From the sequence record PP886230: DNA of 64,000 nt; one strand, 5' to 3'. This document shows, one piece after another, positions 25,727 through 53,754 of this stretch (position 1 is the stretch's first letter; the number at the start of each line of letters is the position of its first letter). This DNA comes from Escherichia phage vB_EcoM_E9.1. Below the pieces are notes generated by a model that saw only the letters and a program-made list of their open reading frames with translations, did no database searches and was not told where the DNA came from. Made by a program: the position numbers and the translations under genes.

Positions 25727-25969
25727 ATGAAAGTACTGACAGAACTAGAAATGTATCATAGATTTAATAAGTACTATCATTTACTTAAGCCTATACAGAG
25801 GATTAAATGTCCATTTGAAGAGAAACAGGTTTTAATCTATGAGCACAAGTTCTTTGTATCATTAGGTACAGATCAACAAGAGTACTATTTGACGTTGTAC
25901 TTGATTACATTAATAGATTTAATTCACTATAAAACAAAACAAGCTAATAAAGAGAAATATGAAAACTAA
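25727..25969 (+). CDS. family A paralogue
   Basis: Motif SLGTDQQEYYL; ATG at 25727 chosen (track ORF from 25694). Confidence 0.6.
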   Translation: MKVLTELEMYHRFNKYYHLLKPIQRIKCPFEEKQVLIYEHKFFVSLGTDQQEYYLTLYLITLIDLIHYKTKQANKEKYEN

Positions 25970-26303
25970 TATACAACTCAAGGTATATAAATCATTTGAA
26001 CATACATATATCAAAAGTAGTCTATGTAGAGATGTAATGGATTACAAGGGTAAGCCATTCACAATTACCTATGATTCTTATGTTAGTGATTTATATATAT
26101 CATTTGTTAATTACGAAAATAAAATATACAAGCACGTTGATATTAAAGATTTAAGTACTTTATCTGAAGAGGAATACTTTCAGGAATCATTAGTATGGGA
26201 TTTAGAGTTTCCTATGCCATTAGTACATAAGATGATAGTACTAATGAAAGAATCTAAACAGGAGCCTAATGGTGATTATGAAGAACACACAGTTGAGTAT
26301 TAA
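25959..26303 (+). CDS. family B paralogue (EEYYFQ-S-L-V-D motif family)
   Basis: Motif EEEYFQESLVWD. Confidence 0.65.
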   Translation: MKTNIQLKVYKSFEHTYIKSSLCRDVMDYKGKPFTITYDSYVSDLYISFVNYENKIYKHVDIKDLSTLSEEEYFQESLVWDLEFPMPLVHKMIVLMKESKQEPNGDYEEHTVEY

Positions 26304-26673
26304 AAGTACTGATAATATTAAGAGTTATACAAGCTCAAGTACTGTGACAATCGAAGTGAATTCTCTTAATGCTGGTAATACAGTAGATAAGTTCTTTATT
26401 GCTCAAGGGTACAGGAAAGATATTCATCAATATTGTTCAGTATATGGGGAGTACAATAGTACTGAAGATATAATTTATTGGTCAACACATCAAGATTATC
26501 TAACTAAAATTGGCGTTCCAGATGTTAGTACTTTATCTGAAGAAGAATACTTTCAGTACAGCTTAGTACATGATTTACCTATACCTTTAGGGTTAATCAA
26601 GGGTATACAGGAAGAGGTTCATAAGCTTAAATCCATGAGTAAAGGTACTTTCATTAGAACAGTGCAATACTAG
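26269..26673 (+). CDS. family B paralogue
   Basis: Motif EEEYFQYSLVHD. Confidence 0.65.
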   Translation: MVIMKNTQLSIKSTDNIKSYTSSSTVTIEVNSLNAGNTVDKFFIAQGYRKDIHQYCSVYGEYNSTEDIIYWSTHQDYLTKIGVPDVSTLSEEEYFQYSLVHDLPIPLGLIKGIQEEVHKLKSMSKGTFIRTVQY

Positions 26674-26732
26674 CTTGACAGTACTTTTCATTACTGATAT
26701 AGTACACTAACGTTAATCATAGGGTAAAAATT

Positions 26733-26978
26733 ATGTTAAATTTTTTAAATTTTCTTATCGTCTTGTGTATTGTTCTTGGGATTGCACCATTTGTATTGTA
26801 TTTCATGGATTCAGATGAAATGCAGAAGATGAATTGCACAAGGACAGGACAGAGTAGAGTAGAGACGATTCTTATGCCTGTTACGGTTATTGTTAACAAC
26901 ATGCCCATTACGAACATGGTCCCTACCCTAACGACAACGTACCAGTACTCTTGTACAGACGGAGAGAGGTGGAGATGA
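26733..26978 (+). CDS. putative small membrane protein
   Basis: ORF 81 aa with hydrophobic N-terminal segment; preferred over the overlapping minus-strand ORF. Confidence 0.4.
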   Translation: MLNFLNFLIVLCIVLGIAPFVLYFMDSDEMQKMNCTRTGQSRVETILMPVTVIVNNMPITNMVPTLTTTYQYSCTDGERWR

Positions 26979-27295
26979 AATTTAATATAGCAAAAACATC
27001 GAGTATATGTATTTTTGGTTATGCAGAAGAGTTAGGTGATATTGACATTCTTTTGTACAAAAAGGATGGTGTTATGCATTTCAAGTACCAGGATGAAGAG
27101 GCAGACAATTATCTTTTACCTAATTTAGTACAAATGCAGGAAGAGGAATTATTCCAGTACAGCTTAATATACGACATTGATATTTGCACGATGCCAGTAC
27201 TAATTAGTATTCAAAAAGTGATGCTCGATATGTATGATAAGCTAATACAAGGTACATCAGGGAGAATCATTGAAATCGATATACAAGACAATTAA
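26975..27295 (+). CDS. family B paralogue
   Basis: Motif EEELFQYSLIYD; ATG at 26975 after SD ggag. Confidence 0.6.
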   Translation: MKFNIAKTSSICIFGYAEELGDIDILLYKKDGVMHFKYQDEEADNYLLPNLVQMQEEELFQYSLIYDIDICTMPVLISIQKVMLDMYDKLIQGTSGRIIEIDIQDN

Positions 27296-27488
27296 TCAAG
27301 AATGGAAGACCCAAAAGTACAGGGAATTCAACAGGAATTTTACAAAAGATGCATTGAATTTAAAAACAACAGAGTTTGATATGTTTATTTTTCTTGGAAC
27401 ACGTTCACAAGAACAATTTGTTCATTATTATATAAATTCGTTGCGAACGGAGATAGTATGCAAAACACAGGGTATTATAAAAAGGTAA
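27270..27488 (+). CDS. family A paralogue (satellite copy)
   Basis: Motif FLGTRSQEQFV. Confidence 0.6.
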   Translation: MKSIYKTINQEWKTQKYREFNRNFTKDALNLKTTEFDMFIFLGTRSQEQFVHYYINSLRTEIVCKTQGIIKR

Positions 27489-27724
27489 ACCAATATTTGT
27501 ACGCTACAAAGTACAGGGATTTTTGTTTAAAGGGTGGTGATGAAGATTTTTCTTTGCGATTATCAGAATTTAATCTGTTATTTTATCTTGGTACAAAAGA
27601 ACAAGAAGAAATGGCACAGAAATTTATCAAGCACCTTGTACAAAAAATTAATATGCAAATTTTGATGCTTAAGATACAGAATGAGATAAATGAATATGAA
27701 TCCAGAAATAGTTCAGGATCTTAA
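27458..27724 (+). CDS. family A paralogue (satellite copy)
   Basis: Motif YLGTKEQEEMA. Confidence 0.6.
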   Translation: MQNTGYYKKVNQYLYATKYRDFCLKGGDEDFSLRLSEFNLLFYLGTKEQEEMAQKFIKHLVQKINMQILMLKIQNEINEYESRNSSGS

Positions 27725-28230: not shown

Positions 28231-28434
28231 ATGCAAAAGATTAATACGATAACATTAAATGCATTACAGGATTCATTATTAGATAGTATTAAGATGTATT
28301 ACAATATACATTTGAAGGGTGGTATTGATAATTACGATTATTATTTGAGTTTAATTACATTTGAGCACCTTTCAGTACAGGACAGGATTTTACATCCTAC
28401 AAATCCTAGGTATCCATCGATAGGTAAATTATGA
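28231..28434 (+). CDS. hypothetical protein
   Basis: ORF 67 aa. Confidence 0.5.
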   Translation: MQKINTITLNALQDSLLDSIKMYYNIHLKGGIDNYDYYLSLITFEHLSVQDRILHPTNPRYPSIGKL

Positions 28435-28979
28435 ATGAGATAGAGTTATTAGCACACAAGATAAGTACAATAATGCTTATCCTCAATAACAACCATCCTA
28501 TATCGCATATAGATGGAATCCTGAGTCAGAGGACAGGTGGTAGTTTATATTTGTCCATAAACGCAGATATCGCAAGGAAATACATTGATATCGATGTTGA
28601 AATCGAATATGATACAACGGGGATTGTTGATGTAGGTGCATTAATCAGTTCAAATCCAGTATCAGCATCCCCATTGACCAAAGATGTTAGTACAGGATTC
28701 GAAGGATATTTGTGGTACAATACCAATGATGATTATTTTATATATCAGCATTCCAATACAAATTATGATGAAGACAAATTTCAGTTCATAGACCCTTATG
28801 ATGAAGCTGGCGTATTCCAACAATCATTAATCACAAAACCGCATGAGATGATGTATCTAATGTTATTCAGTACAATGCATTTGAATTCATTAATTAAAGG
28901 TTTAAAATTTTATATTCAATTAAATTTAGTCCATGTAGTTTATGATTTATTAATGCAAGGATATAGTTATGAAGTATAA
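28431..28979 (+). CDS. family B paralogue (divergent)
   Basis: Motif EAGVFQQSLI; ATGA overlap. Confidence 0.6.
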   Translation: MNEIELLAHKISTIMLILNNNHPISHIDGILSQRTGGSLYLSINADIARKYIDIDVEIEYDTTGIVDVGALISSNPVSASPLTKDVSTGFEGYLWYNTNDDYFIYQHSNTNYDEDKFQFIDPYDEAGVFQQSLITKPHEMMYLMLFSTMHLNSLIKGLKFYIQLNLVHVVYDLLMQGYSYEV

Positions 28980-29280
28980 AATGATGTATACCCCAGATAT
29001 GATTTATGTTGAATTAGAAGATGATGACGATGGGTGGAATTTGATTTATTCAAGAAGTTCAGGTTGGTACATGGCACATTTAAATGATTCGATAGTTACA
29101 GATTATTTTGTAGATTTCAATACATTATCCGATGAAGAATTGTTCCAACAGCAATTAGTGATTGACACGGGTGGTTATGATGTCTTATTATTAAAAAAGA
29201 TACAGAAAGCTGTTATTGATTTTAAGCCCATGATATGGCAAAGGAAATATTATGACCTCGAAGTACCGTACCAGCAATGA
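28969..29280 (+). CDS. family B paralogue
   Basis: Motif DEELFQQQLVID. Confidence 0.65.
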   Translation: MKYKMMYTPDMIYVELEDDDDGWNLIYSRSSGWYMAHLNDSIVTDYFVDFNTLSDEELFQQQLVIDTGGYDVLLLKKIQKAVIDFKPMIWQRKYYDLEVPYQQ

Positions 29281-29818
29281 AATTCAGTACACCTACGCTA
29301 ATGCAATCCTTATGGGACAAAAGTTAGCTTGTATTGTTGCAGCCTTATATAATGCCCAGAAATATCACAAGCGTCATTTCCACAAATGTATTGGTATTAT
29401 TCCATCGAAGTACAATACATATATTGTGTGCACGAGTCATTTTGATAAACGATTCAATACACCTGATACCCCAAATTCCCGTAGTGTTATTGGTCTTTTA
29501 GATTTCGCCCCTGGTGCTGTTATTGGAAAGAATGATTTAGAGTACGCATGGTATAATAAAAATTCCCCATTAGTAATGGTAACATATGATAAAGAAACGA
29601 ACAAAACAATAGAGTACAATACATATAAATCAGAGGAAGAATTTTTCCAAGGTTCATTGCTTGTACCAGTGCGTTTATTGTTTTATAATGTCATAATGAG
29701 TACAGTACACAATAGTCCATTACACAAGAATCACAAAATTAATTTCAATTTTTGTGCTTATGCGATTGATGGTGTATATGAGTGTTTAATGGAGGTATTG
29801 AGTTATGAAGCTGAATAA
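29252..29818 (+). CDS. family B paralogue
   Basis: Motif EEEFFQGSLLV. Confidence 0.65.
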   Translation: MTSKYRTSNEIQYTYANAILMGQKLACIVAALYNAQKYHKRHFHKCIGIIPSKYNTYIVCTSHFDKRFNTPDTPNSRSVIGLLDFAPGAVIGKNDLEYAWYNKNSPLVMVTYDKETNKTIEYNTYKSEEEFFQGSLLVPVRLLFYNVIMSTVHNSPLHKNHKINFNFCAYAIDGVYECLMEVLSYEAE

Positions 29819-30146
29819 TACATTTGATATTAATAAGTTAAGAGAATGGTTTTATAGTATTGAAATTGAAGCCATCCCGTATCATAGATATGAACAATAT
29901 AATTTAACCAGTATTGATATCAGTGAGTTGTACGCGTATTATCAAAGTGCATTAGAGATGCATAAGTTATTTTTGAGTACAGATTTTGTTCTAAATTACA
30001 ATTTTGAGGAATTTAATAATTATAATTTAGTACAGAAATATGTAGTAGCAAAGTACATGTACCTTCAAGGAATTACAAGTATAGTGGAATTCAATACAGT
30101 CCTTGCTTTAGTTGAGGTAATTTTATGCAGTACATGTATGATTTAG
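29805..30146 (+). CDS. hypothetical protein (possibly degenerate family B)
   Basis: ORF 113 aa, only weak motif ELYAYYQSALEM. Confidence 0.5.
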   Translation: MKLNNTFDINKLREWFYSIEIEAIPYHRYEQYNLTSIDISELYAYYQSALEMHKLFLSTDFVLNYNFEEFNNYNLVQKYVVAKYMYLQGITSIVEFNTVLALVEVILCSTCMI

Positions 30147-30631
30147 AGTTCAGCTTAGATGCTGCATTTAAATATGTTCACAAGATAGAAACAATATACA
30201 GTACATTATGTGCAATAAAATCAGTAACAGAAGAGCTTGATGTTGGTGAAAGGTATCAGGTGTGGAATAATTCATTTTTTAATAAAGAACATTCTGCGAC
30301 GGTATTTTATATTTTAGCATTTAATCCCAGCAATTGTTACCCAGAGAAGCATGAACGTTATCCAAATGACGACATGTGGTTTGAGTACAAAGAAGATGCT
30401 GATATGTCGTCAATTGAAGTTCCTGATGATTTTAATGCACAAGATTTAACAGAAGAGTGGTGGTTCCAGCAGAATTTAGTACATGATGATATTGATTTAT
30501 TTTTCTATATTGCATTTAAAATGCTTTATCACAACAATATAGTTAAAGAAAGTGTATCGTTTTCATGTCTATATATTGATGATTTGTACAATGAAATTCA
30601 AATAAACATGCCCAGAACGCCTGTATCGTAA
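30125..30631 (+). CDS. family B paralogue
   Basis: Motif EEWWFQQNLVHD. Confidence 0.65.
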   Translation: MQYMYDLEFSLDAAFKYVHKIETIYSTLCAIKSVTEELDVGERYQVWNNSFFNKEHSATVFYILAFNPSNCYPEKHERYPNDDMWFEYKEDADMSSIEVPDDFNAQDLTEEWWFQQNLVHDDIDLFFYIAFKMLYHNNIVKESVSFSCLYIDDLYNEIQINMPRTPVS

Positions 30632-30648
30632 GATATGGGCTTTTTTTC
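30610..30648 (+). terminator. rho-independent terminator
   Basis: Hairpin gcccagaacgcc..atatgggc then TTTTTTT. Confidence 0.6.
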
Positions 30649-30657
30649 GTTTTGGTA

Positions 30658-30686
30658 TTGACATAGAAGACCAAAGCTGTTATCAT
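30658..30686 (+). promoter_or_regulatory. sigma70-type promoter inside the array (TTGACA-N17-TATCAT)
   Basis: Consensus -35, 17-bp spacer. Confidence 0.55.
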
Positions 30687-30714
30687 GTGTATTCATTTTA
30701 AAGGAGAACATATA

Positions 30715-31227
30715 GTGAGTTTCATAATCCCAAGTACATACGAAGATGCATCAAGTGCAGTTCATAAGATTCATTATATTTTTAATTTAATTATTAGATC
30801 TGCAAAAATTAAAATGTATGCACCTCTTGTGACAAATAATCGAAATGAAGAAATTTTTATTAGCACAGACAAAATTATTTTTCCATATTTCAATGAAGAT
30901 AGATTGTGGTTCATACATTTAGCTGCATTACAAAAATATAAGATGTCAATTCGTAATAATTTGGTTATACCGTTATATCATCCAGATATTGGAGAGGATG
31001 AGTATTTTCAGTACAGTACAGTACATCGCCATGAAGATATCTTTGTTGCTATGCTTATTGCTAAATTGAACACCGTTGATTTGGAGTACCACAAATACAA
31101 TAATAAATCATGTAAGATCATAATCCCTGCATTCATAGCTCTTTATGATTATGTGGTGCATAACAAAAAAGATGATACATATGCTTTCAATGAAGAGTAT
31201 TTGGATTTTTTTAAGGATAACATATGA
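30715..31227 (+). CDS. family B paralogue
   Basis: Motif EDEYFQYSTVH; GTG start after SD aaggaga (track ORF from 30685 overlaps the -10). Confidence 0.6.
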   Translation: MSFIIPSTYEDASSAVHKIHYIFNLIIRSAKIKMYAPLVTNNRNEEIFISTDKIIFPYFNEDRLWFIHLAALQKYKMSIRNNLVIPLYHPDIGEDEYFQYSTVHRHEDIFVAMLIAKLNTVDLEYHKYNNKSCKIIIPAFIALYDYVVHNKKDDTYAFNEEYLDFFKDNI

Positions 31228-31763
31228 GCAGTACAACAGTATCAAAAGTACAGAAAGCAATGTCATTCAATGAAATTGGTACATTTAAAGATAAGATCAT
31301 TGATTGCCTTGAATACATGATTTGTAGTAATATCGAAAGTATCGAGATATTTAACAAGACAAATCGCTCTTACCATATGATGTACATTGCAAACAATAAT
31401 GGTATCATTCCATTTATTTCGGATAGTACAATATGGTACGCATGTGATACGAAAAAAACCACAATAGGTTTACATTTATTTGAGACACATTATGATCTAA
31501 TTATTCCTGAACATTGTATGCAAGAAGAAGAATATTTTCAAATGCAATGTATACATTCACCATTAGTGTTGTTTAGTTTATATATTATACCTTATATCAC
31601 CAAATGTGTTCATGACAATAAAGCTCCGTGGAATCATGAATTTGTATCGTTGAAGTTATTGTATAATGTATTAGTAGAATATTATGATTACAGGCACAAT
31701 GGTACAATCAGTGATGTATGGGATTTTGAATCGCTAAGGGTGAAAACATACACAGGTGAATGA
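31224..31763 (+). CDS. family B paralogue
   Basis: Motif EEEYFQMQCIH; ATGA overlap. Confidence 0.65.
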   Translation: MSSTTVSKVQKAMSFNEIGTFKDKIIDCLEYMICSNIESIEIFNKTNRSYHMMYIANNNGIIPFISDSTIWYACDTKKTTIGLHLFETHYDLIIPEHCMQEEEYFQMQCIHSPLVLFSLYIIPYITKCVHDNKAPWNHEFVSLKLLYNVLVEYYDYRHNGTISDVWDFESLRVKTYTGE

Positions 31764-32379
31764 TATGACCAGAATTAAAATGTATGATTTGATGCAGTAC
31801 AGTAAAATTGCCATTCCAGTGCTTAATAAAGTGCTGGATGCATTCATTGCCAAATACCCTGAGAATTCAGTGTTATGTATTCCATTTAGTGTTCCAGATA
31901 AAGATGATATATTCCAAGTGAATGTCAGTACACGTGGTATTACATTACAGCAGAAATACATGGATACGGAATATTATGGAATAAAGTTGGATTCAGTACA
32001 GGGTTCAAAATCAGCCTATGATTTTTTTGTTCCTAATAATATAGAGTCATGGGAAACAAACATTTCAAAGAAAGATGAAAATGATGTTCCTATTAGTGGT
32101 GTGTTCAACAATAAAGTTTTTTATTATTACGAAACCGACAAATTCCCTGAAGAGTTATATTACAATTCAGAAATGAATGAAGATGTAGATGCATTCATGT
32201 TTCAATTATCTTTAGTACATGATATCATTGATGTTAAAGAGTTAAGAGCAGAAATCAATTTAGCTAAAGAGTTATCGGACATGCTGCCACCGTTTAGTAT
32301 GCTTTTTTGTGAAGGTGGTTATTTTTCAAAAGAAGTGTTTGAACATTTCGTAGATGTTGTAAAAGGGTTGGATATATAG
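31756..32379 (+). CDS. family B paralogue
   Basis: Motif DAFMFQLSLVHD. Confidence 0.65.
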   Translation: MNDMTRIKMYDLMQYSKIAIPVLNKVLDAFIAKYPENSVLCIPFSVPDKDDIFQVNVSTRGITLQQKYMDTEYYGIKLDSVQGSKSAYDFFVPNNIESWETNISKKDENDVPISGVFNNKVFYYYETDKFPEELYYNSEMNEDVDAFMFQLSLVHDIIDVKELRAEINLAKELSDMLPPFSMLFCEGGYFSKEVFEHFVDVVKGLDI

Positions 32380-32380
32380 T

Positions 32381-32575: not shown

Positions 32576-32583
32576 GGTAAAAA

Positions 32584-33099
32584 ATGCATCAACACAAGCA
32601 TCATTCATATGATTTTGCAATTAACATTATGAAGTTCATTCGAGCGTTGGAGGATGGGAAGCTTAGTCATAAGTACACCAAAGTGGGTGACAATTGGTTC
32701 AGAAATGATGATGAGTTCAGAAGTCATAAGATTGTTTACAGCAATAATTACAGTGCCAATTACCTACAAGATGTAGTGATGTGTTTTGAATACGTGTTGC
32801 AGTTCAGGGGTTCAATCCAGGATGAGTTGATGGAGCACATGTACATCAGATACCTTCCAATGCTCAAAGATGAAAATGTATTATTAAATTCAATATACCA
32901 ACGAGTTCGTGAAATTGAGTGCAGGGATATATTAGATACAGAAGAATCGTATTTCCAGCAATCCCTGATTTATGCACCTGATTTATTACAGGTACATAAT
33001 TTGTTTAATACATTACGTCAAAACATCAGTACAGACATATTTTTGTCATTATCGGATTATGATACATTTGTCAAAGATTTAGAGGAAATAGGTTTATGA
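32584..33099 (+). CDS. family B paralogue
   Basis: Motif EESYFQQSLIY. Confidence 0.65.
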   Translation: MHQHKHHSYDFAINIMKFIRALEDGKLSHKYTKVGDNWFRNDDEFRSHKIVYSNNYSANYLQDVVMCFEYVLQFRGSIQDELMEHMYIRYLPMLKDENVLLNSIYQRVREIECRDILDTEESYFQQSLIYAPDLLQVHNLFNTLRQNISTDIFLSLSDYDTFVKDLEEIGL

Positions 33100-33440: not shown

Positions 33441-33450
33441 GGAAAGTACA

Positions 33451-33993: not shown

Positions 33994-34175
33994 TGTATGA
34001 TTATGTGATGGTATAATGCTGATGAAAGAGTTATTTGAAGATCAGTTCAATACATATGTGGATAATATTCTTTATTCCAGCCGTGCTAGTCAACGAGGAA
34101 ATCGTGCTTACAATATAGATTACCTATTAGTGGTGCTGAGTTCACAGTACACCTACGCTGTACAGAGGACATATT

Positions 34176-35878: not shown

Positions 35879-35887
35879 GATTATAAA

Positions 35888-46394: not shown

Positions 46395-46416
46395 AGACCC
46401 GTATGGGTCTTTTTGT
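46395..46416 (+). terminator. rho-independent terminator
   Basis: Hairpin agacccgtatgggtct then TTTTTG. Confidence 0.65.
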
Positions 46417-46469
46417 GTTTATGGCTTTACAAGAGCATTCAGGTGTGTTATACTTGATTTTAACTAGAG

Positions 46470-47048
46470 TTGGAGGAATCTATGAGTACTGAATTAATTA
46501 AAGAAGTCACATTACTTCTGAAGCATTGTTTTAAGTTCATTCCTGATACTGGCTCACGCCAGTACATTAAAGTTAATGAGAAATATAACATCAATATCCT
46601 TGTATCTGAAACTGCGAGCAGTTATGCAAACATTGAGTTGGATTCTGAAGAAAAATATACAGTATTACAAATCATAGCAGATGTACAACGTAAACAAGAT
46701 TATCGTTCTTCATTTTACAACGATCATCTGTGTGTTTGCTCAAACTTCAGTGAGAATAAAATTGTGTATAAGAATTTATACACACATGAAGTGATTGATA
46801 CATATAATTATAAAATTTCATCTGATGAATACAATGTTCTAATGTTCAACGCAAACCTTTTGTATGATGCCAGTACTGTACGCTGTTTAGAGTTAGCATA
46901 TAAAATTCCAAAGATCATGGAAAGAAAAGATTTGATTCACTTTAAAACTATTTTAAAATACAGTACAAAAGAATTAGAGGATTTAGTACAGGCTCTTAAG
47001 AATTTCATTAATGAACATATACCTGTTAAATTCGAGGATGCACAATGA
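46470..47048 (+). CDS. hypothetical protein (possibly degenerate family B)
   Basis: ORF 192 aa; SD ggagga. Confidence 0.6.
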   Translation: MEESMSTELIKEVTLLLKHCFKFIPDTGSRQYIKVNEKYNINILVSETASSYANIELDSEEKYTVLQIIADVQRKQDYRSSFYNDHLCVCSNFSENKIVYKNLYTHEVIDTYNYKISSDEYNVLMFNANLLYDASTVRCLELAYKIPKIMERKDLIHFKTILKYSTKELEDLVQALKNFINEHIPVKFEDAQ

Positions 47049-47629
47049 ACCATATCAGAACTAAAATTTTGAGACTCATGCATGACATTGCAGAACTTTC
47101 AGAGATTCATGACATTACAGAAATTGTTGAATTTGATGATTATCGACTGAAAATTGAAAACAAATCCAAACATCGTTTTGGATCAGTTCAGTTGGATGTA
47201 TATAAAACTTATGAATTTTCTAAAAAAATTAAAAGTTCATGGGATACGATTACTATGTACATTCGCACATCCAGAAATCGTGAACGTATTGGTTCTATTT
47301 CTTCTAATATGGTATTTGCGAATGCATTACATGAAAAAATGAATAAAATTGTAGAATCTAATTTCAGTGAAGATGATGGATTTATTGGGTTGGATGTTCC
47401 ACCAGAATTAGACCAAAGTGAAGATATTCGAGATGCATTCATTTTCCAGAAATCCTTGTTGGACAATTACAAAGAATTCGAGTACTTAATGCTTTGTTAC
47501 GATACTGCAAAAATTCTTGATTGTGGTGAACTAGTTATGTACAATGATTTTATCAATTGCAAGACTGATGTTCTGAATACACTACTTCAAAATATAGAAT
47601 CTGTTAAGGAAAAATATGAACGCTTATAG
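47045..47629 (+). CDS. family B paralogue
   Basis: Motif DAFIFQKSLLD; ATGA overlap. Confidence 0.65.
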   Translation: MNHIRTKILRLMHDIAELSEIHDITEIVEFDDYRLKIENKSKHRFGSVQLDVYKTYEFSKKIKSSWDTITMYIRTSRNRERIGSISSNMVFANALHEKMNKIVESNFSEDDGFIGLDVPPELDQSEDIRDAFIFQKSLLDNYKEFEYLMLCYDTAKILDCGELVMYNDFINCKTDVLNTLLQNIESVKEKYERL

Positions 47630-48194
47630 TTATATGACAGAACGCCATCAGTTATTATATGATATCAGTAAAAAAATGCTATCAATTGTTGGTAGTGCGA
47701 AAGAAATTGAAAAACAATATCTCATCCGTGATGTATCAATTTCATCCAAATGTTGGTCAAATGAATATTACGACCACGGTATTCTTACTATTTCTGGGGC
47801 CAGAAATATTTGTATTGTAAAAAATAAAAGTAAAAGTAATGAAGAGTGTGAGATTAGAACCGATATACAAATTAAGGATGATGGAAGTTTTTCACACCAC
47901 CCATTCCATATTAGTACTGTTGGTGTTTTATATAATATTAAAGTACTATTCGGTGATGAAGAGTATGTGTTAAAATCTATCAATCCAGATTCAAGTACAG
48001 TTGAAGAAGAACTGTCCCAGATGAGCACTGTTATACCTGAAGAGGTTCTTAGTACTATTATTTTTTGTAGTTTAATTTATCATGAATACAAAAAGAACCA
48101 GTTCGATTTCCACATGTTAGGAACGTACATCTTCAATAATTTGAATGTAGATCGTTTAAAAGCATTAAATGCAGCAATGGATAAGGTTATATAA
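47616..48194 (+). CDS. family B paralogue (divergent)
   Basis: Motif EEELSQMSTVI. Confidence 0.6.
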   Translation: MNAYSYMTERHQLLYDISKKMLSIVGSAKEIEKQYLIRDVSISSKCWSNEYYDHGILTISGARNICIVKNKSKSNEECEIRTDIQIKDDGSFSHHPFHISTVGVLYNIKVLFGDEEYVLKSINPDSSTVEEELSQMSTVIPEEVLSTIIFCSLIYHEYKKNQFDFHMLGTYIFNNLNVDRLKALNAAMDKVI

Positions 48195-48622
48195 TGACAA
48201 GAGATGATTGTTTGTACATATGGGATATAATTGAAACTACACTTTCAAATCCAGAAAATTATAAAACAAAAAAAAGACAACGACACAAAATATGGATAGA
48301 TTTGTTCGTTGAGGGCATACACGCAGTGACTATTTGGGATTCACCGAGGGCATCAGCATCTACTCTATTGGACAATGAATGCATTGATTGCATTAATTCC
48401 ACTTTTCATCTCTACGGTACTACATTTTTCGGTACATTTCTGGATATTGAAAGTAAAGATGATATTGATTCACTTGCGTTACAATACCAAGTACTGTATA
48501 ATACTAAATTAATTTACGATTTAGTACTAGCTTCTTATGTGTATAAATTAATGATGAAATATAATCATATTTCTGTTTCAGTTTATACTAAGGATATTCT
48601 TTCATTAAGAGACAAAACATGA
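48194..48622 (+). CDS. hypothetical protein (possibly degenerate family B)
   Basis: ORF 142 aa, weak motif SLALQYQVLY. Confidence 0.55.
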   Translation: MTRDDCLYIWDIIETTLSNPENYKTKKRQRHKIWIDLFVEGIHAVTIWDSPRASASTLLDNECIDCINSTFHLYGTTFFGTFLDIESKDDIDSLALQYQVLYNTKLIYDLVLASYVYKLMMKYNHISVSVYTKDILSLRDKT

Positions 48623-49128
48623 GTTTATTAAATGCACGCGAATTAGTTGAGATGTATGAGATTTTGTCTTCATATAAAAATTCTCATGGAGATGTGATTC
48701 TCGACAAAAAGTTCCATGTCAGTGTTGAACATATATCAAATATAGATATGATTTCTTTGGTGGAAAGTAATAAGTCAGGTCTTGAACGCGATATCATGCG
48801 TTTGATTTATATTCCCAAACCATCATATACTAATGATAGTTCAATTAGTAATGAGACATTCATGTATAGTCCTGGTACGGATTCTACTATAGTATCGCTG
48901 TCCAATAAATCAATGGGTACTTTCCAATTCATCTATACCAGTACTGATAACATTGAAGAAATTGAATTTCAAAACAATACATTAAGTCCATGTAGTAGTG
49001 TTATAACCTTTATGTCATATCTATGGTCAACTAAAACAAGTGCTGTTGTATATAGTTCAAATTATACACAAGATAGTATTGTTGAATCATATAAAGTTCT
49101 AAAGGAATACTATGAAAATAACAAATGA
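48619..49128 (+). CDS. family B paralogue (divergent)
   Basis: Motif EEIEFQNNTLS; ATGA overlap. Confidence 0.6.
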   Translation: MSLLNARELVEMYEILSSYKNSHGDVILDKKFHVSVEHISNIDMISLVESNKSGLERDIMRLIYIPKPSYTNDSSISNETFMYSPGTDSTIVSLSNKSMGTFQFIYTSTDNIEEIEFQNNTLSPCSSVITFMSYLWSTKTSAVVYSSNYTQDSIVESYKVLKEYYENNK

Positions 49129-49693
49129 TTTTATTAAAAGTGTAGTACACCCTATGCTTAGTATTATGAAAAAAATACAGAATCTACCGGAAGATAACGA
49201 TTACAAGTTTAATCGTTTTGATTCAGATGTGTTTTGTATTGAAATTGAAATTAATAACAATCGCAATTTACATTTAAAATTCAAAGAATCGTCAAGTCCG
49301 TACTACAACTTTGATATGAATTTTAAAATAGATACTGACATTGAAGAAAACGTAATATCAAATCATACTAGCAAAAATGGTTTTATGCATAGAACTACTA
49401 TGTACAATAATAAAAATAGTATTATATCTAAATGGAATCATCAATTCACTAAAATTTGTGAAATTGAATATAGTGATTTTGGTGAAGAGAATTACTTTCA
49501 GTTAAGTACAATTCATGAACTTCCACCGTATGATTATGTTAAAACATGGTTTGATATTCATAATATAATTGATGATGCAATCAAACTTCCATTTGGTGTG
49601 TCAATATCATATACTGCTCCTAAAACATTTGTTTTTACTGAAGATATGATTATGAAAAAGATATGGGCAATTATCCCACTTATGATGGATTAA
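49112..49693 (+). CDS. family B paralogue
   Basis: Motif EENYFQLSTIH. Confidence 0.65.
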   Translation: MKITNDFIKSVVHPMLSIMKKIQNLPEDNDYKFNRFDSDVFCIEIEINNNRNLHLKFKESSSPYYNFDMNFKIDTDIEENVISNHTSKNGFMHRTTMYNNKNSIISKWNHQFTKICEIEYSDFGEENYFQLSTIHELPPYDYVKTWFDIHNIIDDAIKLPFGVSISYTAPKTFVFTEDMIMKKIWAIIPLMMD

Positions 49694-49754
49694 ATTCGTA
49701 CCAGGGGTTGACTCTGGTATTTTTGTATGATACATTGTCCTAAAGGAGAATTTT

Positions 49755-50306
49755 ATGAACTACAATCATGATCTTTTTACATTATGTGCATCCAAATGTG
49801 TTGATGGATGGACAGATAAAATCAATACCATAATTCATCGATATCTGGTCTTTAGTTCTCGTGCACGAAGTGAGGGGGCTATGGATTTCAAATATACACT
49901 ATCTATTGATGGTGTAACTATCCATGCAGACGAAGAACGTCTGAGCATTAATTTGTATGATTCCTGTGTATTTGCTATTCACCAAAAGATGGGGAAAGGA
50001 TGGGGTTGTAATAACATTAACTCAAAAGCTATCTTTTGGGTTGGTCACCACCAGACAGTACTTGATCCTTCAATCAAATCTAATCTTTTATCCGATAATA
50101 TGGTTTATGATTTATTGTACTCCGAAGAACAACATTTTCAGTTAAGTACATTACATGATCTGGCACAGTACGAGGATTGTTACAAAACATTAGAACTATG
50201 CCATTCCCTTGAACTTAAAGATAAATTGATACAAGTTTACCCTTCATTCTTTCATGAAGAAGTACAAAGTACACTAGATCATATTTTATATGGATACGAT
50301 AAATGA
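49755..50306 (+). CDS. family B paralogue
   Basis: Motif EEQHFQLSTLHD; SD aaggaga. Confidence 0.65.
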   Translation: MNYNHDLFTLCASKCVDGWTDKINTIIHRYLVFSSRARSEGAMDFKYTLSIDGVTIHADEERLSINLYDSCVFAIHQKMGKGWGCNNINSKAIFWVGHHQTVLDPSIKSNLLSDNMVYDLLYSEEQHFQLSTLHDLAQYEDCYKTLELCHSLELKDKLIQVYPSFFHEEVQSTLDHILYGYDK

Positions 50307-50905
50307 GAAAAAGTTATCAAGAAGCTATTGACTTAATTCGTGAAGTTATCAAGGTGGCTCCTGCTGCTATTGAGTTCAAGAAGTCCATATACAAGAAGTA
50401 TGGTTCAATGTCGAGTATGTGCTTTCAAAAGAAACGTAGAGCATTCACTACCCAGTACTGGAATGATTCTATCATCCTGAGCAATGAGACTCAGCGTATT
50501 TTAACACTAGAATCTGAACCTAATGAGTACGGGGAAGGGAACATTTGTGTACCTGATTATGATGAAATTAACTTCAACTGCGGTGATTTTGAAACAACAT
50601 TATTACTTCATGAGGGTTATCCAGAAGGTGATGTATTAGCTGAGTACAATCCAAAAACTAAAATTCTCAAAAGAGGAATCCAGTTCACTATTAATAACAA
50701 AGATGATGTTCAAGCAGCACTGATGCAACTGAGTACAAGTGAACCTATCACTATTAGTGTAGAAGAGTTATGGGGAATTATTTCAGTACTCAATGAGTGC
50801 TACAAAGTAAAATCATTGCGTAAACACAGCATTATATTACATACCAATATGGCAAATATAAAATGTAAGCACATTCAAGAAATGGTGGTTCCAGATGGAC
50901 TTTAA
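50303..50905 (+). CDS. family B paralogue (divergent)
   Basis: Motif QAALMQLSTSE; ATGA overlap. Confidence 0.6.
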   Translation: MRKSYQEAIDLIREVIKVAPAAIEFKKSIYKKYGSMSSMCFQKKRRAFTTQYWNDSIILSNETQRILTLESEPNEYGEGNICVPDYDEINFNCGDFETTLLLHEGYPEGDVLAEYNPKTKILKRGIQFTINNKDDVQAALMQLSTSEPITISVEELWGIISVLNECYKVKSLRKHSIILHTNMANIKCKHIQEMVVPDGL

Positions 50906-51479
50906 AGAAATTGAAAGTAAATTAAAGTACTTCAAAGATATCAAACTTCTTTGGAAAAAGTATAAAGTTGATTACAATTTCAGTGATGATGAGACAATAA
51001 AATACATTGAGATTAATATCAAAATCAAGTTCAAGAATAATAATTATGGTGAAGTAACCTTAAATCATACTGGTATATCACTCAAGGACTATGATGGTAC
51101 AACACTCGCATATTTTGACTTCACACCAGAACCAGGTGAAACACTACTTAGTGAGATAAATTCCTATGACATGGAAGTGTTCGGCGGGAATCCGTTACTG
51201 TTCCGACTTTCTGAAGAGTGGAGTGAAGAGTACTACACTTACAAAGATGGTGTAGTACTTGACATTCATGGAGAAGTTGTGAATGACTTGGAAGAACGTT
51301 TGTTCCAAGAATTGTGTGTTTCAAATACTTCATATGCATACAATCATATCCTTGACATGTTTGATTTATATAGTAAAATAGATGCTGAAATGAAGGCACA
51401 TGGTATTCATTACCTTACAATTAACGACTATGCTCAACTCGAAACCGCTGTGAAAGCATTGACTAAAGTACTGAAATAG
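50895..51479 (+). CDS. family B paralogue (divergent)
   Basis: Motif EERLFQELCVS. Confidence 0.6.
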   Translation: MDFKEIESKLKYFKDIKLLWKKYKVDYNFSDDETIKYIEINIKIKFKNNNYGEVTLNHTGISLKDYDGTTLAYFDFTPEPGETLLSEINSYDMEVFGGNPLLFRLSEEWSEEYYTYKDGVVLDIHGEVVNDLEERLFQELCVSNTSYAYNHILDMFDLYSKIDAEMKAHGIHYLTINDYAQLETAVKALTKVLK

Positions 51480-51488
51480 GAATGAAAT

Positions 51489-51902
51489 ATGAAACTGTAT
51501 CATGCGAGTACTGTAAAAATTGATAACTTTTATATCCCGTATGGTGGTCTTCATATGGGAGGTAAACACAGTGCTTTGGAAGCTGCATTACGCAAGCTGA
51601 GAAGCCCACTGAACGTAGTAGACGCATGTACAGTATACTTGCATACCTTAGAAGTTGATGTTGATAACGTGCTTCTGTGTGAAGATTTAGGCAGTGATGA
51701 TGAGTGGCGTTCACTTATTGAGAATTGCACTGCTCAAGGTTATGATGCTGTTCAGTACAAAAATGACTACGAGCCTGATAATGTTCCTAGCTTTATGATT
51801 TGGGATGCATCTAAAGTTCGCATCATTGAAGTTGATGCTATGCATATGGATGAAGCTGAAATGATTATCGAAGATTTTCTTGATGAATATGAAGGTGTAT
51901 AA
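51489..51902 (+). CDS. hypothetical protein unrelated to the flanking paralogues
   Basis: ORF 137 aa, no family motif, visibly less AT-rich than neighbours. Confidence 0.6.
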   Translation: MKLYHASTVKIDNFYIPYGGLHMGGKHSALEAALRKLRSPLNVVDACTVYLHTLEVDVDNVLLCEDLGSDDEWRSLIENCTAQGYDAVQYKNDYEPDNVPSFMIWDASKVRIIEVDAMHMDEAEMIIEDFLDEYEGV

Positions 51903-52438
51903 TGACTGACCCGATGGTAGCACTGGCACGTACTAAGTTACTATTAAAGATTGGTGAGATTTTTACGGTTCTTCTGTCCAATAATATTGATATTACTGAG
52001 CTAGATATTAAGCAACCGTGGGAAGTGACTATGTTCTCGGCGTTCCACCGATTGTCATATAAAGGTGAAAGTGTTCTTGATTTTAACCCTAAAGCAAAAT
52101 TCATAGATTATGCTGCGTTGTACAGAGAGTTGCACCGAAATATTTATTCCGGTTGTATAACCAATAACTTCAAAGAAATTAAAGTTCAAACTGCATCACA
52201 TGAGTTCAATGATTTACTTTATCCAGAATTTAATCTAACGGAAGAATTACTCTTTCAGTACTCGTTAATTCTCACAAATCTCGAAACACTAGAGTTCTAC
52301 AAAGAGTTAGTAGATATTTTTATGAATACACGACTTTCAAAAGATATTGTGATATTCTGGTATACAGAGCATGTTACGGAGGAATTGCTTACTGAATTTC
52401 TTCTAAATATGACAGCTATAAAGGAGAAGTTATGTTAG
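51902..52438 (+). CDS. family B paralogue
   Basis: Motif EELLFQYSLIL. Confidence 0.65.
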   Translation: MTDPMVALARTKLLLKIGEIFTVLLSNNIDITELDIKQPWEVTMFSAFHRLSYKGESVLDFNPKAKFIDYAALYRELHRNIYSGCITNNFKEIKVQTASHEFNDLLYPEFNLTEELLFQYSLILTNLETLEFYKELVDIFMNTRLSKDIVIFWYTEHVTEELLTEFLLNMTAIKEKLC

Positions 52439-52905
52439 ATATTTTAGGAAACATCGATACTGCAAATTATTTTATCCAGGACGCACTGTTCAATACAGTT
52501 CAACAAGGATTAGAAGTTCGTCATAACGTTTACCAAGGTGATGGTTATTTCGTTGATATTGTTGAGGCACGAAAGAATACGTTTAATGTTAACATTACAA
52601 CACTGGGTAGACAGAACATTGCACGAATTTTAGTAAGTAAAGATGAAATTGTATTGAGATACAGTGCTAAGTTTATGTTGACTTATAAGAAAAAAACTGA
52701 TATGTTCAGTACTAATTTATTTGATGAGCCATTTGACCTTGAAGATATTGAAGCTACTTTCTTTACTCAAAGTACTATGGTAAAATACACTGATGTTCAA
52801 TTTTCTGCTGATGTAATGTCAGAAACATTACAAATGATCAAGGTATTATTTTATGCATTTGAGCAATTTAGAGAAGAAAGAAACAAGGTTAACAACCACA
52901 GATGA
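52432..52905 (+). CDS. family B paralogue (divergent)
   Basis: Motif EATFFTQSTMV. Confidence 0.6.
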   Translation: MLDILGNIDTANYFIQDALFNTVQQGLEVRHNVYQGDGYFVDIVEARKNTFNVNITTLGRQNIARILVSKDEIVLRYSAKFMLTYKKKTDMFSTNLFDEPFDLEDIEATFFTQSTMVKYTDVQFSADVMSETLQMIKVLFYAFEQFREERNKVNNHR

Positions 52906-53266
52906 ACTAATAGAGGCGATGACTAAGGAGTCAAAATACCACAAAGGGATTCGTCTATATTTTATAGATATTGGTTCAATGGAAGGCATATACATTTATG
53001 GTTCACAATCTTTATCTTATGATGTAATGCCAAAAAAACATGTAAAAATCTTTTTAGGTTCAAATAAAAAAACTTTCTTGACAATTAATGATAAAAACGT
53101 TATTATGAATTCGTTGGGTCATGATAAGGTGGAAATTGATCTAAACACACTGGAGGATATTGATTTTTTTCAATACGAGTGTTTAGGTGTTGACTTACAT
53201 GGCATTAGTAGCGATATGATAAAATCATTAATCAAATATTTCGAAGGTGTTCATAAATGTATCTAA
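52853..53266 (+). CDS. family B paralogue (divergent; start may be ATG 52919)
   Basis: Motif DIDFFQYECLG. Confidence 0.55.
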   Translation: MHLSNLEKKETRLTTTDELIEAMTKESKYHKGIRLYFIDIGSMEGIYIYGSQSLSYDVMPKKHVKIFLGSNKKTFLTINDKNVIMNSLGHDKVEIDLNTLEDIDFFQYECLGVDLHGISSDMIKSLIKYFEGVHKCI

Positions 53267-53754
53267 CTAAATCAATGAAAAATTCATTTGATAAAATTAA
53301 GAGTTGTCTTGATGGAGAAAATATTACAAGTGTTACACAAACTGCTGACCAAATTCAAAGCAGTTCAAGTGATTGCACTGTTATTTTTGGTTTACATAGT
53401 CTGCGTTTATCAATAGTAAATAATATTGACAACACTGCTATTGTAATCACACCATGCAATATTCAAAATGAGAATGGTGTATATCTTCATCACATGGGAA
53501 CAGTATTTCACATTTTCAATTCAAACGAAAACATTGTTAAGGAATACAATACTCTTAATATTGATTCAGGTGAATTATTTCAAATGAGTACTTTGTACTC
53601 ATGTAATTTTACAGATACTTCATGTATTTTGCCATTTTTCTTGGAAATTATTAAGAAAATGGAAAATTTAAAACGTGAATACAATAAAGAAATGGTTCCT
53701 GAAGCTATATTAAATATTACTAATGCTATAGAGAAGTATAATGCAGTGACTTAA
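53257..53754 (+). CDS. family B paralogue
   Basis: Motif GELFQMSTLY. Confidence 0.65.
   Translation: MYLTKSMKNSFDKIKSCLDGENITSVTQTADQIQSSSSDCTVIFGLHSLRLSIVNNIDNTAIVITPCNIQNENGVYLHHMGTVFHIFNSNENIVKEYNTLNIDSGELFQMSTLYSCNFTDTSCILPFFLEIIKKMENLKREYNKEMVPEAILNITNAIEKYNAVT

Follow-up and report, generated by a model that had tools for sequence, protein, structure and literature searches.

The window analysed here, a 64,000-nucleotide stretch of Escherichia phage vB_EcoM_E9.1 (PP886230), belongs to an Asteriusvirus (PBECO4/121Q-like) jumbo coliphage. About 28 kb of it, positions 25959-53754, is filled by head-to-tail genes on the + strand, raising the questions of whether these genes form one family, how they came to differ so widely and what they do for the phage.

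Extent and membership of the array

Iterated HMM searching of the array brought 38 same-strand ORFs, the firm members, into one family (family B) at E<1e-3, with per-ORF E values from 2.7e-11 to 3.3e-32. An independent profile that included outside sequences recovered 37 of the 38, and all-vs-all BLASTP linked 23 ORFs. Firm members are 103-207 amino acids (aa) long (median 164).

Firm members (coordinates, strand, description, HMM E value):
25959..26303, +, short form, 114 aa, EEEYFQESLVWD, with motif, 1.1e-15
26269..26673, +, 134 aa, EEEYFQYSLVHD, 3.8e-17
26951..27295, +, short, 114 aa, 1e-15; from the start candidates, the real start is probably ATG 26975
28431..28979, +, 182 aa, 1.3e-23
28969..29280, +, short, 103 aa, 2.8e-16
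29252..29818, +, 188 aa, phrog_19795, 6.5e-25
30125..30631, +, 168 aa, 7.4e-21
30685..31227, +, 180 aa, 2.6e-20
31224..31763, +, 179 aa, 1e-21
31756..32379, +, 207 aa, 2.7e-11
32584..33099, +, 171 aa, phrog_28680, 2.3e-23
33379..33993, +, 204 aa (longest ORF), 1e-21
34603..35166, +, 187 aa (longest ORF), 1.8e-18
35163..35522, +, short, 119 aa, phrog_15629, 3.4e-19
35519..35878, +, short, 119 aa, 3.4e-18
35888..36379, +, 163 aa, modelled protein, EEYYFQQSTVYD, 3.3e-32
36381..36851, +, 156 aa, 1.6e-26
36848..37291, +, 147 aa, 6.7e-29
37291..37779, +, 162 aa, 5.3e-32
37757..38209, +, 150 aa, 1.4e-31
38206..38520, +, short, 104 aa, 8.2e-12 (hhalign P 4.6e-5)
38825..39274, +, 149 aa, 8.7e-25
40162..40722, +, 186 aa, 2.2e-16
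41323..41685, +, short, 120 aa, 1e-13
41675..42010, +, short, 111 aa, 7e-14
42000..42554, +, 184 aa, 1.6e-27
42614..43090, +, 158 aa, phrog_12674, 9.9e-29
43087..43581, +, 164 aa, 1.2e-28
43547..43909, +, short, 120 aa, 6.4e-17
43893..44306, +, 137 aa, 1.3e-19
44294..44797, +, 167 aa, basic (pI 9.1), 7.6e-26
45320..45883, +, 187 aa, phrog_22855, 6.4e-24
45828..46394, +, 188 aa (longest ORF), 6e-20
47616..48194, +, 192 aa, motif F replaced (EEELSQMST), 1.5e-18
49112..49693, +, 193 aa, phrog_34636, 5.6e-19
49755..50306, +, 183 aa, 1.6e-17
51902..52438, +, 178 aa, 1.1e-13
53257..53754, +, 165 aa, 1.6e-13

In profile-profile comparison, seven further array ORFs align with the family on the motif columns (P 3e-4 to 0.012); among 26 control ORFs from outside the array, none does better than P 0.033. 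Five more ORFs carry degenerate motifs that MAFFT, independently, puts in the motif columns. Also lying within the region are four family-A ORFs, a gene resembling ADP-ribosyl transferases (ART-like) and several small unrelated ORFs.

Divergent candidates and embedded non-members:
33096..33440, +, probable divergent member (RFQYETAYD), HMM E 9e-4, hhalign P 0.004 on motif columns
39271..39807, +, probable divergent member (CFQLSCTDP), hhalign P 0.007 on motif columns
47045..47629, +, probable divergent member (IFQKSLLDN), hhalign P 3e-4
48194..48622, +, probable divergent member (ALQYQVLYN), hhalign P 1e-3
48619..49128, +, probable divergent member (EFQNNTLSP), HMM E 0.0024, hhalign P 0.0035
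50895..51479, +, probable divergent member (LFQELCVSN), hhalign P 6e-4
52853..53266, +, probable divergent member (FFQYECLGV), HMM E 0.011, hhalign P 0.012 on motif columns
40793..41317, +, possible degenerate member (DEDAMFTNDITMG), MAFFT motif-column placement only, hhalign non-significant
44781..45323, +, possible degenerate member (ERIKFSLS), MAFFT placement, HMM and hhalign negative
46470..47048, +, possible degenerate member (MFNANLLYD), MAFFT placement; low-confidence AF2 model (pLDDT 60) with the family's helix/strand order
50303..50905, +, possible degenerate member (ALMQLSTSEP), MAFFT placement; hhalign match to the N-terminal helix only (P 0.0065)
52432..52905, +, possible degenerate member (TFFTQSTMV), hhalign P 0.024 on motif columns, MAFFT placement
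27270..27724, +, two family-A ORFs (27270-27488, 27458-27724), BLAST cluster
39785..40172, +, two family-A ORFs (39785-40003, 39981-40172), BLAST cluster
51489..51902, +, ART-like non-member gene, 47-60% identity in RaK2, Munch and GAP32

With 38 firm, 7 probable and 5 possible members (45 probable in all, up to 50 possible), the figure of about 47 paralogues given in the preliminary description is a fair one. Its limits for the array are exact, the first member beginning at 25959 and the last stopping at 53754. Nor is the shared motif that it reported due to chance: a strict regular expression matches 14 ORFs, every one within the region; the remaining + strand ORFs, over 100 in number, go unmatched. 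Firm members account for 65% of the region, and for 86% together with the candidates. The genes are closely packed, 12 of the 63 junctions being ATGA overlaps, 4 one-nucleotide overlaps and 29 longer overlaps; gaps of 40 nt or more occur at 9. In 37% of members the best-matching paralogue lies no more than two ranks away, where chance would give 11%, a signal of tandem duplication. The closest pair, 37291 and 35888, is 55% identical.

Motif, predicted fold and proposed function

The core motif of family B reads [ST]-E-E-x-[YFH]-F-Q-x-S-[TL]-[VIL]-[YH]-[DNS]. Among 169 representative clusters the F is present in all, the Q in 167, the two E residues in 144 and 151 and the S in 153. An exhaustive profile search of 1.84 billion representatives returned 148 clusters, all of 65-210 aa with one full-length match each, and no domain fusion among them. 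The family matched nothing in Pfam, NCBIfam or the PDB sequences, nor any fold among solved structures, and in PHROGs it is scattered over many "unknown function" groups. The confident fold is one AlphaFold prediction built from 26 paralogues, for the 35888 protein (pLDDT 89, pTM 0.84); its structural neighbours in BFVD, all uncharacterised, are proteins of 121Q, SP27, RaK2, GAP32, Serratia BF and Yersinia fHe-Yen9. As modelled, family B has an alpha/beta fold without a described relative. In this one confident model, long members would comprise an N-terminal helix, a six-stranded sheet that varies in both length and sequence, and a helical portion at the C-terminus; the latter is predicted to open with [ST]-E-E-x-Y-F-Q-x-S-[TL]-V-Y-D, after which come a hydrophobic helix and an F-Y-L-D strand. 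The N-terminal helix is missing from eleven short members.

By analogy, the members of the family would most likely bind or inhibit host proteins. Their conserved helices and motif would serve as a folding scaffold, and the variable sheet and loops would give each paralogue a separate binding surface. Individual members would thereby bind or inhibit, stoichiometrically, differing host proteins, whether of defence or housekeeping, and together they would make up a host-takeover or anti-defence set. The explanation as a whole, a lineage-specific, early, non-virion family acting as host-protein binders or inhibitors, has in our estimate about an even chance of being correct. The near-invariant polar E, E, Q and S could instead mark a shared active or ligand site rather than a scaffold.

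The last observation leads to a different account, to which we give a minor share of the probability, in which all members share one site, catalytic or ligand-binding, built from the polar motif residues (E, E, Q, S, D/N), and paralogues differ in substrate or target. The proteins might then be sponges for immune signalling nucleotides, or modifying enzymes. Retention of E, E, F, Q and S in 85-100% of the 169 clusters, at an overall identity of about 15-20%, favours such a site, as does the presence of the motif in RaK2 and GAP32. However, Q and/or S are gone from about 10-12 still alignable array ORFs, no enzyme or known sponge with a similar fold or sequence was found, and 40-odd copies of a single enzyme would be unusual. 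Moreover, we take the [ST]-E-E opening the predicted helix (residues 113-119) to be compatible with a helix N-capping box, and the motif F/Y, presumably, with core packing.

The conserved motif might also, rather than being a folding scaffold for independent binders, dock all paralogues through the C-terminal helices on one common partner, either a host hub or the array-encoded ART-like protein, with the variable sheet bringing in different targets. The conservation of one end of the sequence and the variability of the remainder would suit adaptors of this kind, and the ART-like gene (51489-51902) lies inside the array in all four genera examined. We consider this unlikely: the ART assignment is putative, the ph0011 counterpart being annotated 'putative ADP-ribosyl transferase' while Pfam and PDB give no support, and the co-location may merely reflect a common early region.

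Relatives and selection

Family members are found at a matching place in the genome in RaK2 (about 29 copies; 27-29 HMM matches), in Salmonella phage Munch (at least 13) and in GAP32 (about 9 array genes, 4 of them HMM matches at E<1e-3). Those of RaK2 carry the motif TEEGYFQYSTLYD and lie directly upstream of a conserved marker, the homologue of 53797-54270. Comparison of the window with Munch gives 40-66% identity for flanking genes, and family members have just the motif in common; only 53257..53754 has a full-length orthologue in Munch (33% identity). The shared position indicates that the family is ancestral to RaK2-like jumbo phages. It is common to the whole group, with copy numbers from about 9 to about 45-50, the largest being that of the window phage. 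The region thus holds an old multigene family limited to one phage lineage.

Expansion under diversifying selection had been suggested for this region. Gene-wide, this is unsupported, because 32 orthologue pairs with phage ph0011 give dN/dS values of 0.08-0.39 (median 0.25), indicative of purifying selection. Pooled by protein region, dN/dS is 0.25, 0.30, 0.21 and 0.31, no segment coming close to 1; the sheet (0.30) is barely higher than the motif region (0.21), hence there is no arms-race signal at the regional level. Two overprinted out-of-frame control ORFs (36984 and 43148) give values of about 2, against 0.08-0.39 in the family frames. The array ORFs are genuine genes under purifying selection. 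Paralogues are old, mostly 15-30% identical, and each persists as a separate orthologue lineage. Old divergence, the birth and death of genes, and mosaic exchange of alleles (dS between neighbouring genes spans 0.1 to 2.7) account for their diversity. The proposed set of binders would have been built by these processes together with tandem duplication, the alleles being exchanged between related phages.

These data bear on whether the array might be mostly neutral filler, duplicates of little individual function gathered once the capsid had enlarged, as in the head-full 'ratchet' of Hua et al. Those authors suggested that jumbo genomes could grow by tandem duplication and remarked on an array of >30 similar genes in 121Q (PMC5646251), and the spread in copy number from 9 to about 50 across genera would fit. 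We regard filler as improbable, however, since the ORFs are intact and collinear between phages at dS up to >1, their dN/dS is low, the motif is kept across genera, and the genes are tightly packed with overlaps and have their own predicted promoters.

Promoters, position and timing

Promoters in the array were called by consensus match alone. Nine sigma-70 promoters that have an extended -10 element were called on its + strand; five of them fall in gaps, which make up 2.5% of the length, and three of the gap promoters come after terminators.

Predicted transcription signals:
26675..26703, +, sigma-70-type promoter TTGACA-17-TATAGT with TG, 59-nt gap, 11/12 match
30619..30686, +, terminator hairpin and T-run (30619-30640), then promoter TTGACA-17-TATCAT with TG (30658-30686)
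33994..34175, +, 182-nt gap with TGGTATAAT, putative extended -10 element read from the sequence
42551..42580, +, perfect sigma-70 promoter TTGACA-18-TATAAT with TG, ahead of 42614, 12/12 match
46393..46454, +, terminator (46393-46412), then promoter TTTACA-17-TATACT with TG
49698..49742, +, terminator (49698-49720) overlapping promoter TTGACT-17-TACATT with TG

Position 1 of the window aligns with position 1 of fEgEco12, whose ends were mapped and bear a 20,993-bp direct terminal repeat (PMC13070987); the array sits in an accessory region just inside the left terminal repeat. In CBB, the equivalent region, with short hypothetical genes and RpoD-like promoters, was inferred to be an early host-takeover region (PMC5259590).

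The family is acidic, with a median pI of 4.9 and net charge of -9 (upstream ORFs, 7.4 and 0); three members are basic. A narrower form of the binder model is that the acidic surfaces could pass for DNA and so titrate restriction proteins or other defence proteins that bind DNA, a role to which the early setting and the strongly acidic charge of many members (-21 for 35888 and -26 for 37291, each of about 160 aa) would be suited; we rate such anti-restriction mimicry as a slim prospect.

Internal proteins of some myoviruses are likewise small, acidic and numerous, but that family B is packaged in the virion and delivered with the DNA is very improbable, as the phAPEC6 virion proteome, with its 62 proteins, includes nothing from gp404c-gp466c, the annotation of GAP32 labels no gene of the array as structural, and the T4-type late motif TATAAATA occurs nowhere in the 64 kb, where about 11 occurrences were expected from base composition.

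The array is best read as an early, non-structural accessory module, its proteins probably being produced early in infection. The host-takeover or anti-defence setting envisaged in the preliminary description is plausible in view of the sigma-70 promoters in gaps, the missing late motif, the lack of members in the virion proteome and the adjoining terminal repeat. For the proposed host-protein binders, early transcription of the array would be by host RNA polymerase, in no fewer than 6-7 short operons, each presumably beginning at an extended -10 sigma-70 promoter and several having a terminator just before it.

Membership, motif and predicted fold

All-versus-all BLASTP comparison of the ORFs on the + strand, which carries almost every ORF of this region (G+C about 31%), yielded three paralogue clusters: family A, family B (the tandem array of small genes at 25959-53754) and a five-member family. 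The BLASTP cluster of family B comprised 23 ORFs. Iterated HMM searching raised the number to 38, all between 25959 and 53754 (E from 2.7e-11 to 3.3e-32), and an independent profile that included outside sequences recovered 37 of the 38. A strict regular expression for the motif matched 14 ORFs, all within the array region and none elsewhere. When array ORFs, each with its orthologues, were compared with the family profile to profile, seven extra ORFs aligned on the motif columns (P 3e-4 to 0.012), the best P among 26 control ORFs from outside the array being 0.033. In a MAFFT alignment, the degenerate motifs of five more ORFs stack in the motif columns (e.g., MFNANLLYD, ALMQLSTSEP, ERIKFSLS). 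Taken together, these analyses put the firm members at 38, the probable ones at about 45 and the possible ones at up to 50, so that the estimate of about 47 tandem paralogues in the preliminary description stands. The tight, often ATGA-coupled packing on one strand noted there is equally apparent: most of the 63 junctions are overlaps, including 12 of the ATGA type, 4 of one base and 29 longer ones. Firm members are 103-207 aa long and cover 65% of the array region, a value that rises to 86% when candidates are included. Directly upstream lies family A, with 29 ORFs of 63-96 aa (20205-25969; phrog_4148, "unknown function"), four further copies of which are interspersed in the family-B array (27270-27724 and 39785-40172).

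When 1.84 billion representative proteins were searched exhaustively with the profile, 148 clusters emerged at E<1e-3, all of 65-210 aa and each with one full-length match; no fusion of the family-B domain to any other domain was found among them. Combining these with the matches of a word-indexed search gave 169 representative proteins, approximately 70% of which have no counterpart of 50% identity or more in three Asteriusvirus loci. The motif across this set reads [TS]-E-E-x-[YFH]-F-Q-x-S-[TL]-[VIL]-[YH]-[DNS], with F present in 169/169 proteins, Q in 167/169, the two E in 144/169 and 151/169, and S in 153/169. The N-terminal helix has conserved A and I positions as well. These results confirm the shared acidic-aromatic core of the preliminary description. 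No Pfam family scored above threshold for 10 members, NCBIfam gave no match for 26, and a PDB profile search gave no significant sequence match (best E 0.56), in agreement with the earlier remark that the motif was not recognised as a characterised domain.

An AlphaFold2 model of the member at 35888-36379, built from an alignment of 26 window paralogues only, reached a pLDDT of 89 and a pTM of 0.84. The predicted elements are, in order:

Residues 3-22: helix
Within residues 35-101: six strands
Residues 103-107: short helix
Residues 113-119: short helix, corresponding to the motif
Residues 125-139: helix
Residues 145-148: strand
Residues 149-157: helix

A Foldseek search against predicted viral structures returned only uncharacterised proteins of 121Q, SP27, RaK2, GAP32, Serratia phage BF and Yersinia phages fHe-Yen9-03/04. 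The model of degenerate ORF 46470 (37-row alignment; pLDDT 60, pTM 0.51) has the same order of secondary structure, and a BFVD search with this low-confidence model found only its own orthologues, at a TM of about 0.2. Eleven short members are without the N-terminal helix. The family is mostly acidic (median pI 4.9; median charge -9, range +6 to -26), three members being basic.

The motif bears a likeness to a TEV-type protease site (E-x-x-Y-x-Q-[GS]; ENLYFQ/S). This identification was rejected, as the conserved S of family B lies two residues after the Q. A G or S right after the Q, as in the TEV consensus, occurs only in 38825-39274 (EEGYFQGS) and 43087-43581 (EEMYFQGS). Since only these two members fit and the motif falls in a predicted helix, the likeness is judged a coincidence.

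Genome position and predicted expression

Megablast comparison places the window in genus Asteriusvirus (PBECO4/121Q-like jumbo coliphages with genomes of about 350 kb), JP4, slurp01 and PBECO4 being 97-98% identical to it across the array region. Position 1 of the window aligns with position 1 of fEgEco12, whose genome termini and direct terminal repeat of 20,993 bp have been determined by experiment (PMC13070987). Window base 1 thus falls on the left end mapped in fEgEco12, so that roughly the first 21 kb should match the direct terminal repeat, and the family-B array begins a few kb to the inside of the left repeat and reads inward.

The few gaps of 40 nt or more within the array share a consistent layout: first a terminator hairpin, then a sigma-70 promoter whose -10 element is extended by TG. 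From their match to the consensus, the promoters predicted in these gaps are:

26675, + strand, predicted sigma-70 promoter
30658, + strand, predicted sigma-70 promoter
42551, + strand, predicted sigma-70 promoter (12/12 match)
46426, + strand, predicted sigma-70 promoter
49708, + strand, predicted sigma-70 promoter

Five of the nine array promoters with an extended -10 element lie in intergenic sequence, which makes up 2.5% of the array. No copy of the T4-type late motif TATAAATA, which has been predicted to act as late promoter in two related phages, CBB and GAP32 (PMC5259590), occurs on the + strand of the 64-kb window (32-40% G+C), against about 11 occurrences expected from base composition. 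This suggests that the whole window is early or middle territory, or else that the motif is avoided. Furthermore, mass spectrometry identified 62 virion proteins in phAPEC6 (PMC7247149), and the orthologues in that phage, gp404c-gp466c, are all missing from this set. In CBB, the matching stretch of short hypothetical genes with RpoD-like promoters was inferred by its describers to be the early host-takeover region (PMC5259590). The array thus displays, judging from sequence matches, sigma-70 promoters without late promoters, together with a position beside the terminal repeat, both marks of a host-takeover region. From the promoters, the lack of the late motif, the absence from the virion and the reading of the CBB region, we infer with good support that the array is probably expressed early and codes for non-structural proteins.

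Distribution and evolution of the array

The gene that follows the array (53797-54270; phrog_16362) served as the anchor for finding syntenic arrays. It is conserved in 70 records of RaK2-like jumbo phages from nine host genera, at 35-65% identity and including Xanthomonas phages, is 100% identical in many Asteriusvirus genomes, and has a dN/dS of 0.01 relative to the Asteriusvirus ph0011; its only Pfam lead, a weak one (E 0.012), is to a crAss tail ring protein. The position of the array is conserved across some 70 sequenced RaK2-like jumbo phages of Escherichia, Klebsiella, Salmonella, Cronobacter, Erwinia, Serratia, Yersinia and others. A tblastn search with the HMM consensus found 35 Asteriusvirus records only, missing RaK2 and GAP32, which were then found by applying the HMM to syntenic loci. 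In RaK2 (Alcyoneusvirus), the stretch immediately upstream of the anchor contains 27-29 HMM matches, whose motifs include TEEGYFQYSTLYD. At least 13 members occur in Salmonella phage Munch, within a run of about 28 ORFs of similar size, and GAP32 (Mimasvirus) has a nine-gene run with a weaker motif (e.g., FQLSTLYD, FQLMTLYD). Copy number therefore ranges from about 9 (GAP32) through at least 13 (Munch) and about 29 (RaK2) to about 45 (window). The RaK2-like family can be defined by the motif [ST]EExYFQxS[TL]VYD, a stand-alone length of 100-210 aa and a tandem array upstream of the marker gene and a Dam methylase gene; this definition fits the window, RaK2, Munch and GAP32. The syntenic arrays thus mark the family as ancestral to the RaK2-like group, within which its expansion differs in extent.

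At the genus level, one-to-one orthology of family B is lost, as judged from sequence comparison. The genes flanking the array are 40-66% identical over their full length between window and Munch, whereas family members share the motif only; the exception is 53257-53754, the sole member with a one-to-one Munch orthologue. No family A homologue was found at the Munch locus. Within the window, the best paralogue of a member lies within two ranks of it in 37% of cases, as opposed to 11% at random, which fits an origin by tandem duplication. Most paralogues are only 20-35% identical, so that most duplications must be old. The tandem arrangement, the variation in copy number and the loss of one-to-one orthology at larger distance are the marks of birth-and-death evolution.

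Selection was assessed by comparing orthologues between the window and ph0011 (about 84% DNA identity). The 32 family-B pairs gave dN/dS values of 0.08-0.39 (median 0.25), and values pooled by region were lowest in the motif plus C-terminal helix (0.21), followed by the N-terminal helix (0.25), the sheet (0.30) and the tail (0.31). With neither gene-wide (0.08-0.39) nor regional (0.21-0.31) values anywhere near 1, the earlier proposal of a family under diversifying selection is not borne out at either level; the host-takeover or anti-defence setting put forward with it is plausible. Orthologues are between 43% and 95% identical in amino-acid sequence, and neighbouring genes differ widely in dS (0.1-2.7), a spread that points to mosaic exchange of old alleles rather than to fast point evolution. 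Orthologues of family A have dN/dS values of about 0.16-0.5. Two out-of-frame ORFs nested in family-B genes (36984-37229 and 43148-43333) show a dN/dS of about 2 relative to ph0011, confirming the family-B coding frames; these ORFs can almost certainly be dismissed as genes.

Salmonella phages SD-1/2/6/15 (310-326 kb) were considered as natural deletions that might bear on dispensability and were set aside because of their fragment-rich annotation. Their array alignments are in many pieces (e.g., SD-1_S14, OR699183.1 76000-122000), with many ORF fragments of 90-150 nt, and the records look like frameshift-rich assemblies rather than cases of real gene loss.

Candidate functions and known systems

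We favour the interpretation that the family-B proteins share one scaffold and differ in their surfaces. The fold would be held by the motif together with the helices at the N- and C-termini; the sheet and loops, differing in sequence and length, would give each paralogue a specificity of its own, and the proteins would act by stoichiometric binding or inhibition of different host proteins. What suggests a binding role is that the setting is early, that the proteins are small, acidic and devoid of any catalytic domain, and that each paralogue is maintained as its own lineage. While the anatomy is near certain, the function is moderately likely, and we give the statement as a whole an even chance. 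Should the members prove to be host-takeover or anti-defence binders, the array would rank among the largest single-family arsenals known from any phage and could yield new inhibitors of bacterial proteins. If the proteins are not binders, their persistence under purifying selection needs explaining, a question that bears on the growth of jumbo genomes.

Conservation of the motif could alternatively reflect a shared active or ligand site. Because an [ST]-E-E at a helix start fits an N-capping box, and the F/Y residues fit core packing, the motif also suits a structural role, and we regard a common site as unlikely, if worth keeping in mind. A further, rather doubtful alternative is an adaptor family of new fold, in which the motif and C-terminal helices dock all 40-50 paralogues on one shared partner, for example the conserved ADP-ribosyltransferase (ART)-like enzyme encoded within the array or a hub protein of the host (RNA polymerase, a protease), and the variable sheet brings a different host defence or housekeeping protein to it. 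Such a system would be the phage counterpart of the F-box, BTB and PRANC expansions in giant eukaryotic viruses, a single locus with a broad counter-defence repertoire. A non-member gene embedded in the array (51489-51902, 137 aa) is conserved at 47-60% identity in RaK2, Munch and GAP32 in the same relative position, with invariant H5, Y90, N92 and E95 (LYHAS ... YKNxYE). Its ph0011 orthologue is annotated as a putative ADP-ribosyltransferase, an assignment that received no support from Pfam, a PDB sequence search or a five-sequence profile.

That the genes are near-neutral filler seems improbable; their dN/dS values are those of purifying selection. DNA mimicry comes after it as a distinctly improbable reading: several members are small, very acidic and predicted to be early, as are mimics of the Ocr/ArdA type, but there is no sequence or structural likeness to Ocr, ArdA or another known mimic. 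The charge varies across the family, from +6 to -26 with a median of -9. A role as virion or internal proteins is hardly credible given the phAPEC6 proteome.

Compared with known early host-takeover regions (the T5 pre-early/early genes, the T4 early genes and the SPO1 terminal-redundancy module), the array is alike in having many small one-strand genes beside a terminal repeat, strong host-type promoters, non-structural products and variability between relatives. Those regions, however, consist mostly of unrelated genes, whereas family B is one fold repeated 40-50 times, with a predicted early timing and a putative role in host shut-off. Multigene families of eukaryotic viruses (ASFV MGF360/505, the poxvirus terminal families, the mimivirus ankyrin/BTB/F-box expansions) likewise form tandem arrays near a genome end, diverge deeply around a scaffold motif and differ in copy number, but their folds and host domain are unrelated to family B. 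Large viruses are thus already known to expand accessory genes in tandem within single lineages. In jumbo phages, an expansion of small genes was read as tandem duplication by Hua et al. (2017, PMC5646251); their description "very similar" fits family A better than family B, whose copies are about 15-30% identical. Phage G has about 35 zinc-ribbon copies (Iyer et al. 2021, PMC7824862), likewise lineage-specific tandem small genes but unrelated to family B. Family B, with its motif and fold, is defined in neither of these papers, and the comparative jumbo-phage survey of Iyer et al. does not describe it. The RaK2 paper states that about 10% of RaK2 proteins are paralogues, and no more (PMC3622015). 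In the literature on PBECO4, 121Q and RaK2 phages, several of the RaK2-like group being phage-therapy candidates, we found only passing remarks on paralogues and nothing on the family, its expression or an anti-defence role. Nor did we find a description of its motif, apparently new fold, size or conservation in the RaK2-like group. Every related genome has the family-B genes deposited as hypothetical proteins.

The same proteins are present in PHROGs, split over more than 10 groups of "unknown function", and the unity of the family, its motif, fold and spread across genera are unrecorded there. Window members match PHROGs 9317, 12674, 13866, 15629, 19795, 22855, 28680, 34636, 38478 and others (E 1e-56 to 1e-136), and the family-B PHROGs cross-match one another at E 1e-3 to 1e-12. 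The family definition merges these groups and many singletons, and supplies a motif, a structural model and, for four genera, copy numbers of one uncharacterised fold that accounts for about 18-24 kb (5-7%) of a 350-kb genome.

Elsewhere in the window, positions 1-15500 hold small ORFs separated by gaps of 70-90 nt, in contrast with the tightly packed arrays downstream. Long non-coding gaps occur at 19956-20204 (249 nt) and 57313-57639 (327 nt), the latter combining a promoter-like site with a strong hairpin; neither Rfam nor tRNA scanning of the whole window, these gaps included, gave any match. A Dam-type N6-adenine methyltransferase (PF05869, E 6e-32) followed by a cytidylyltransferase-like protein maps at 58553-59604; phAPEC6 and Munch carry the pair in synteny downstream of their arrays, and the dam gene of RaK2 occupies the same place. 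The third paralogue family consists of five consecutive ORFs of 88-103 aa at 60822-62231 (phrog_21004, "unknown function").
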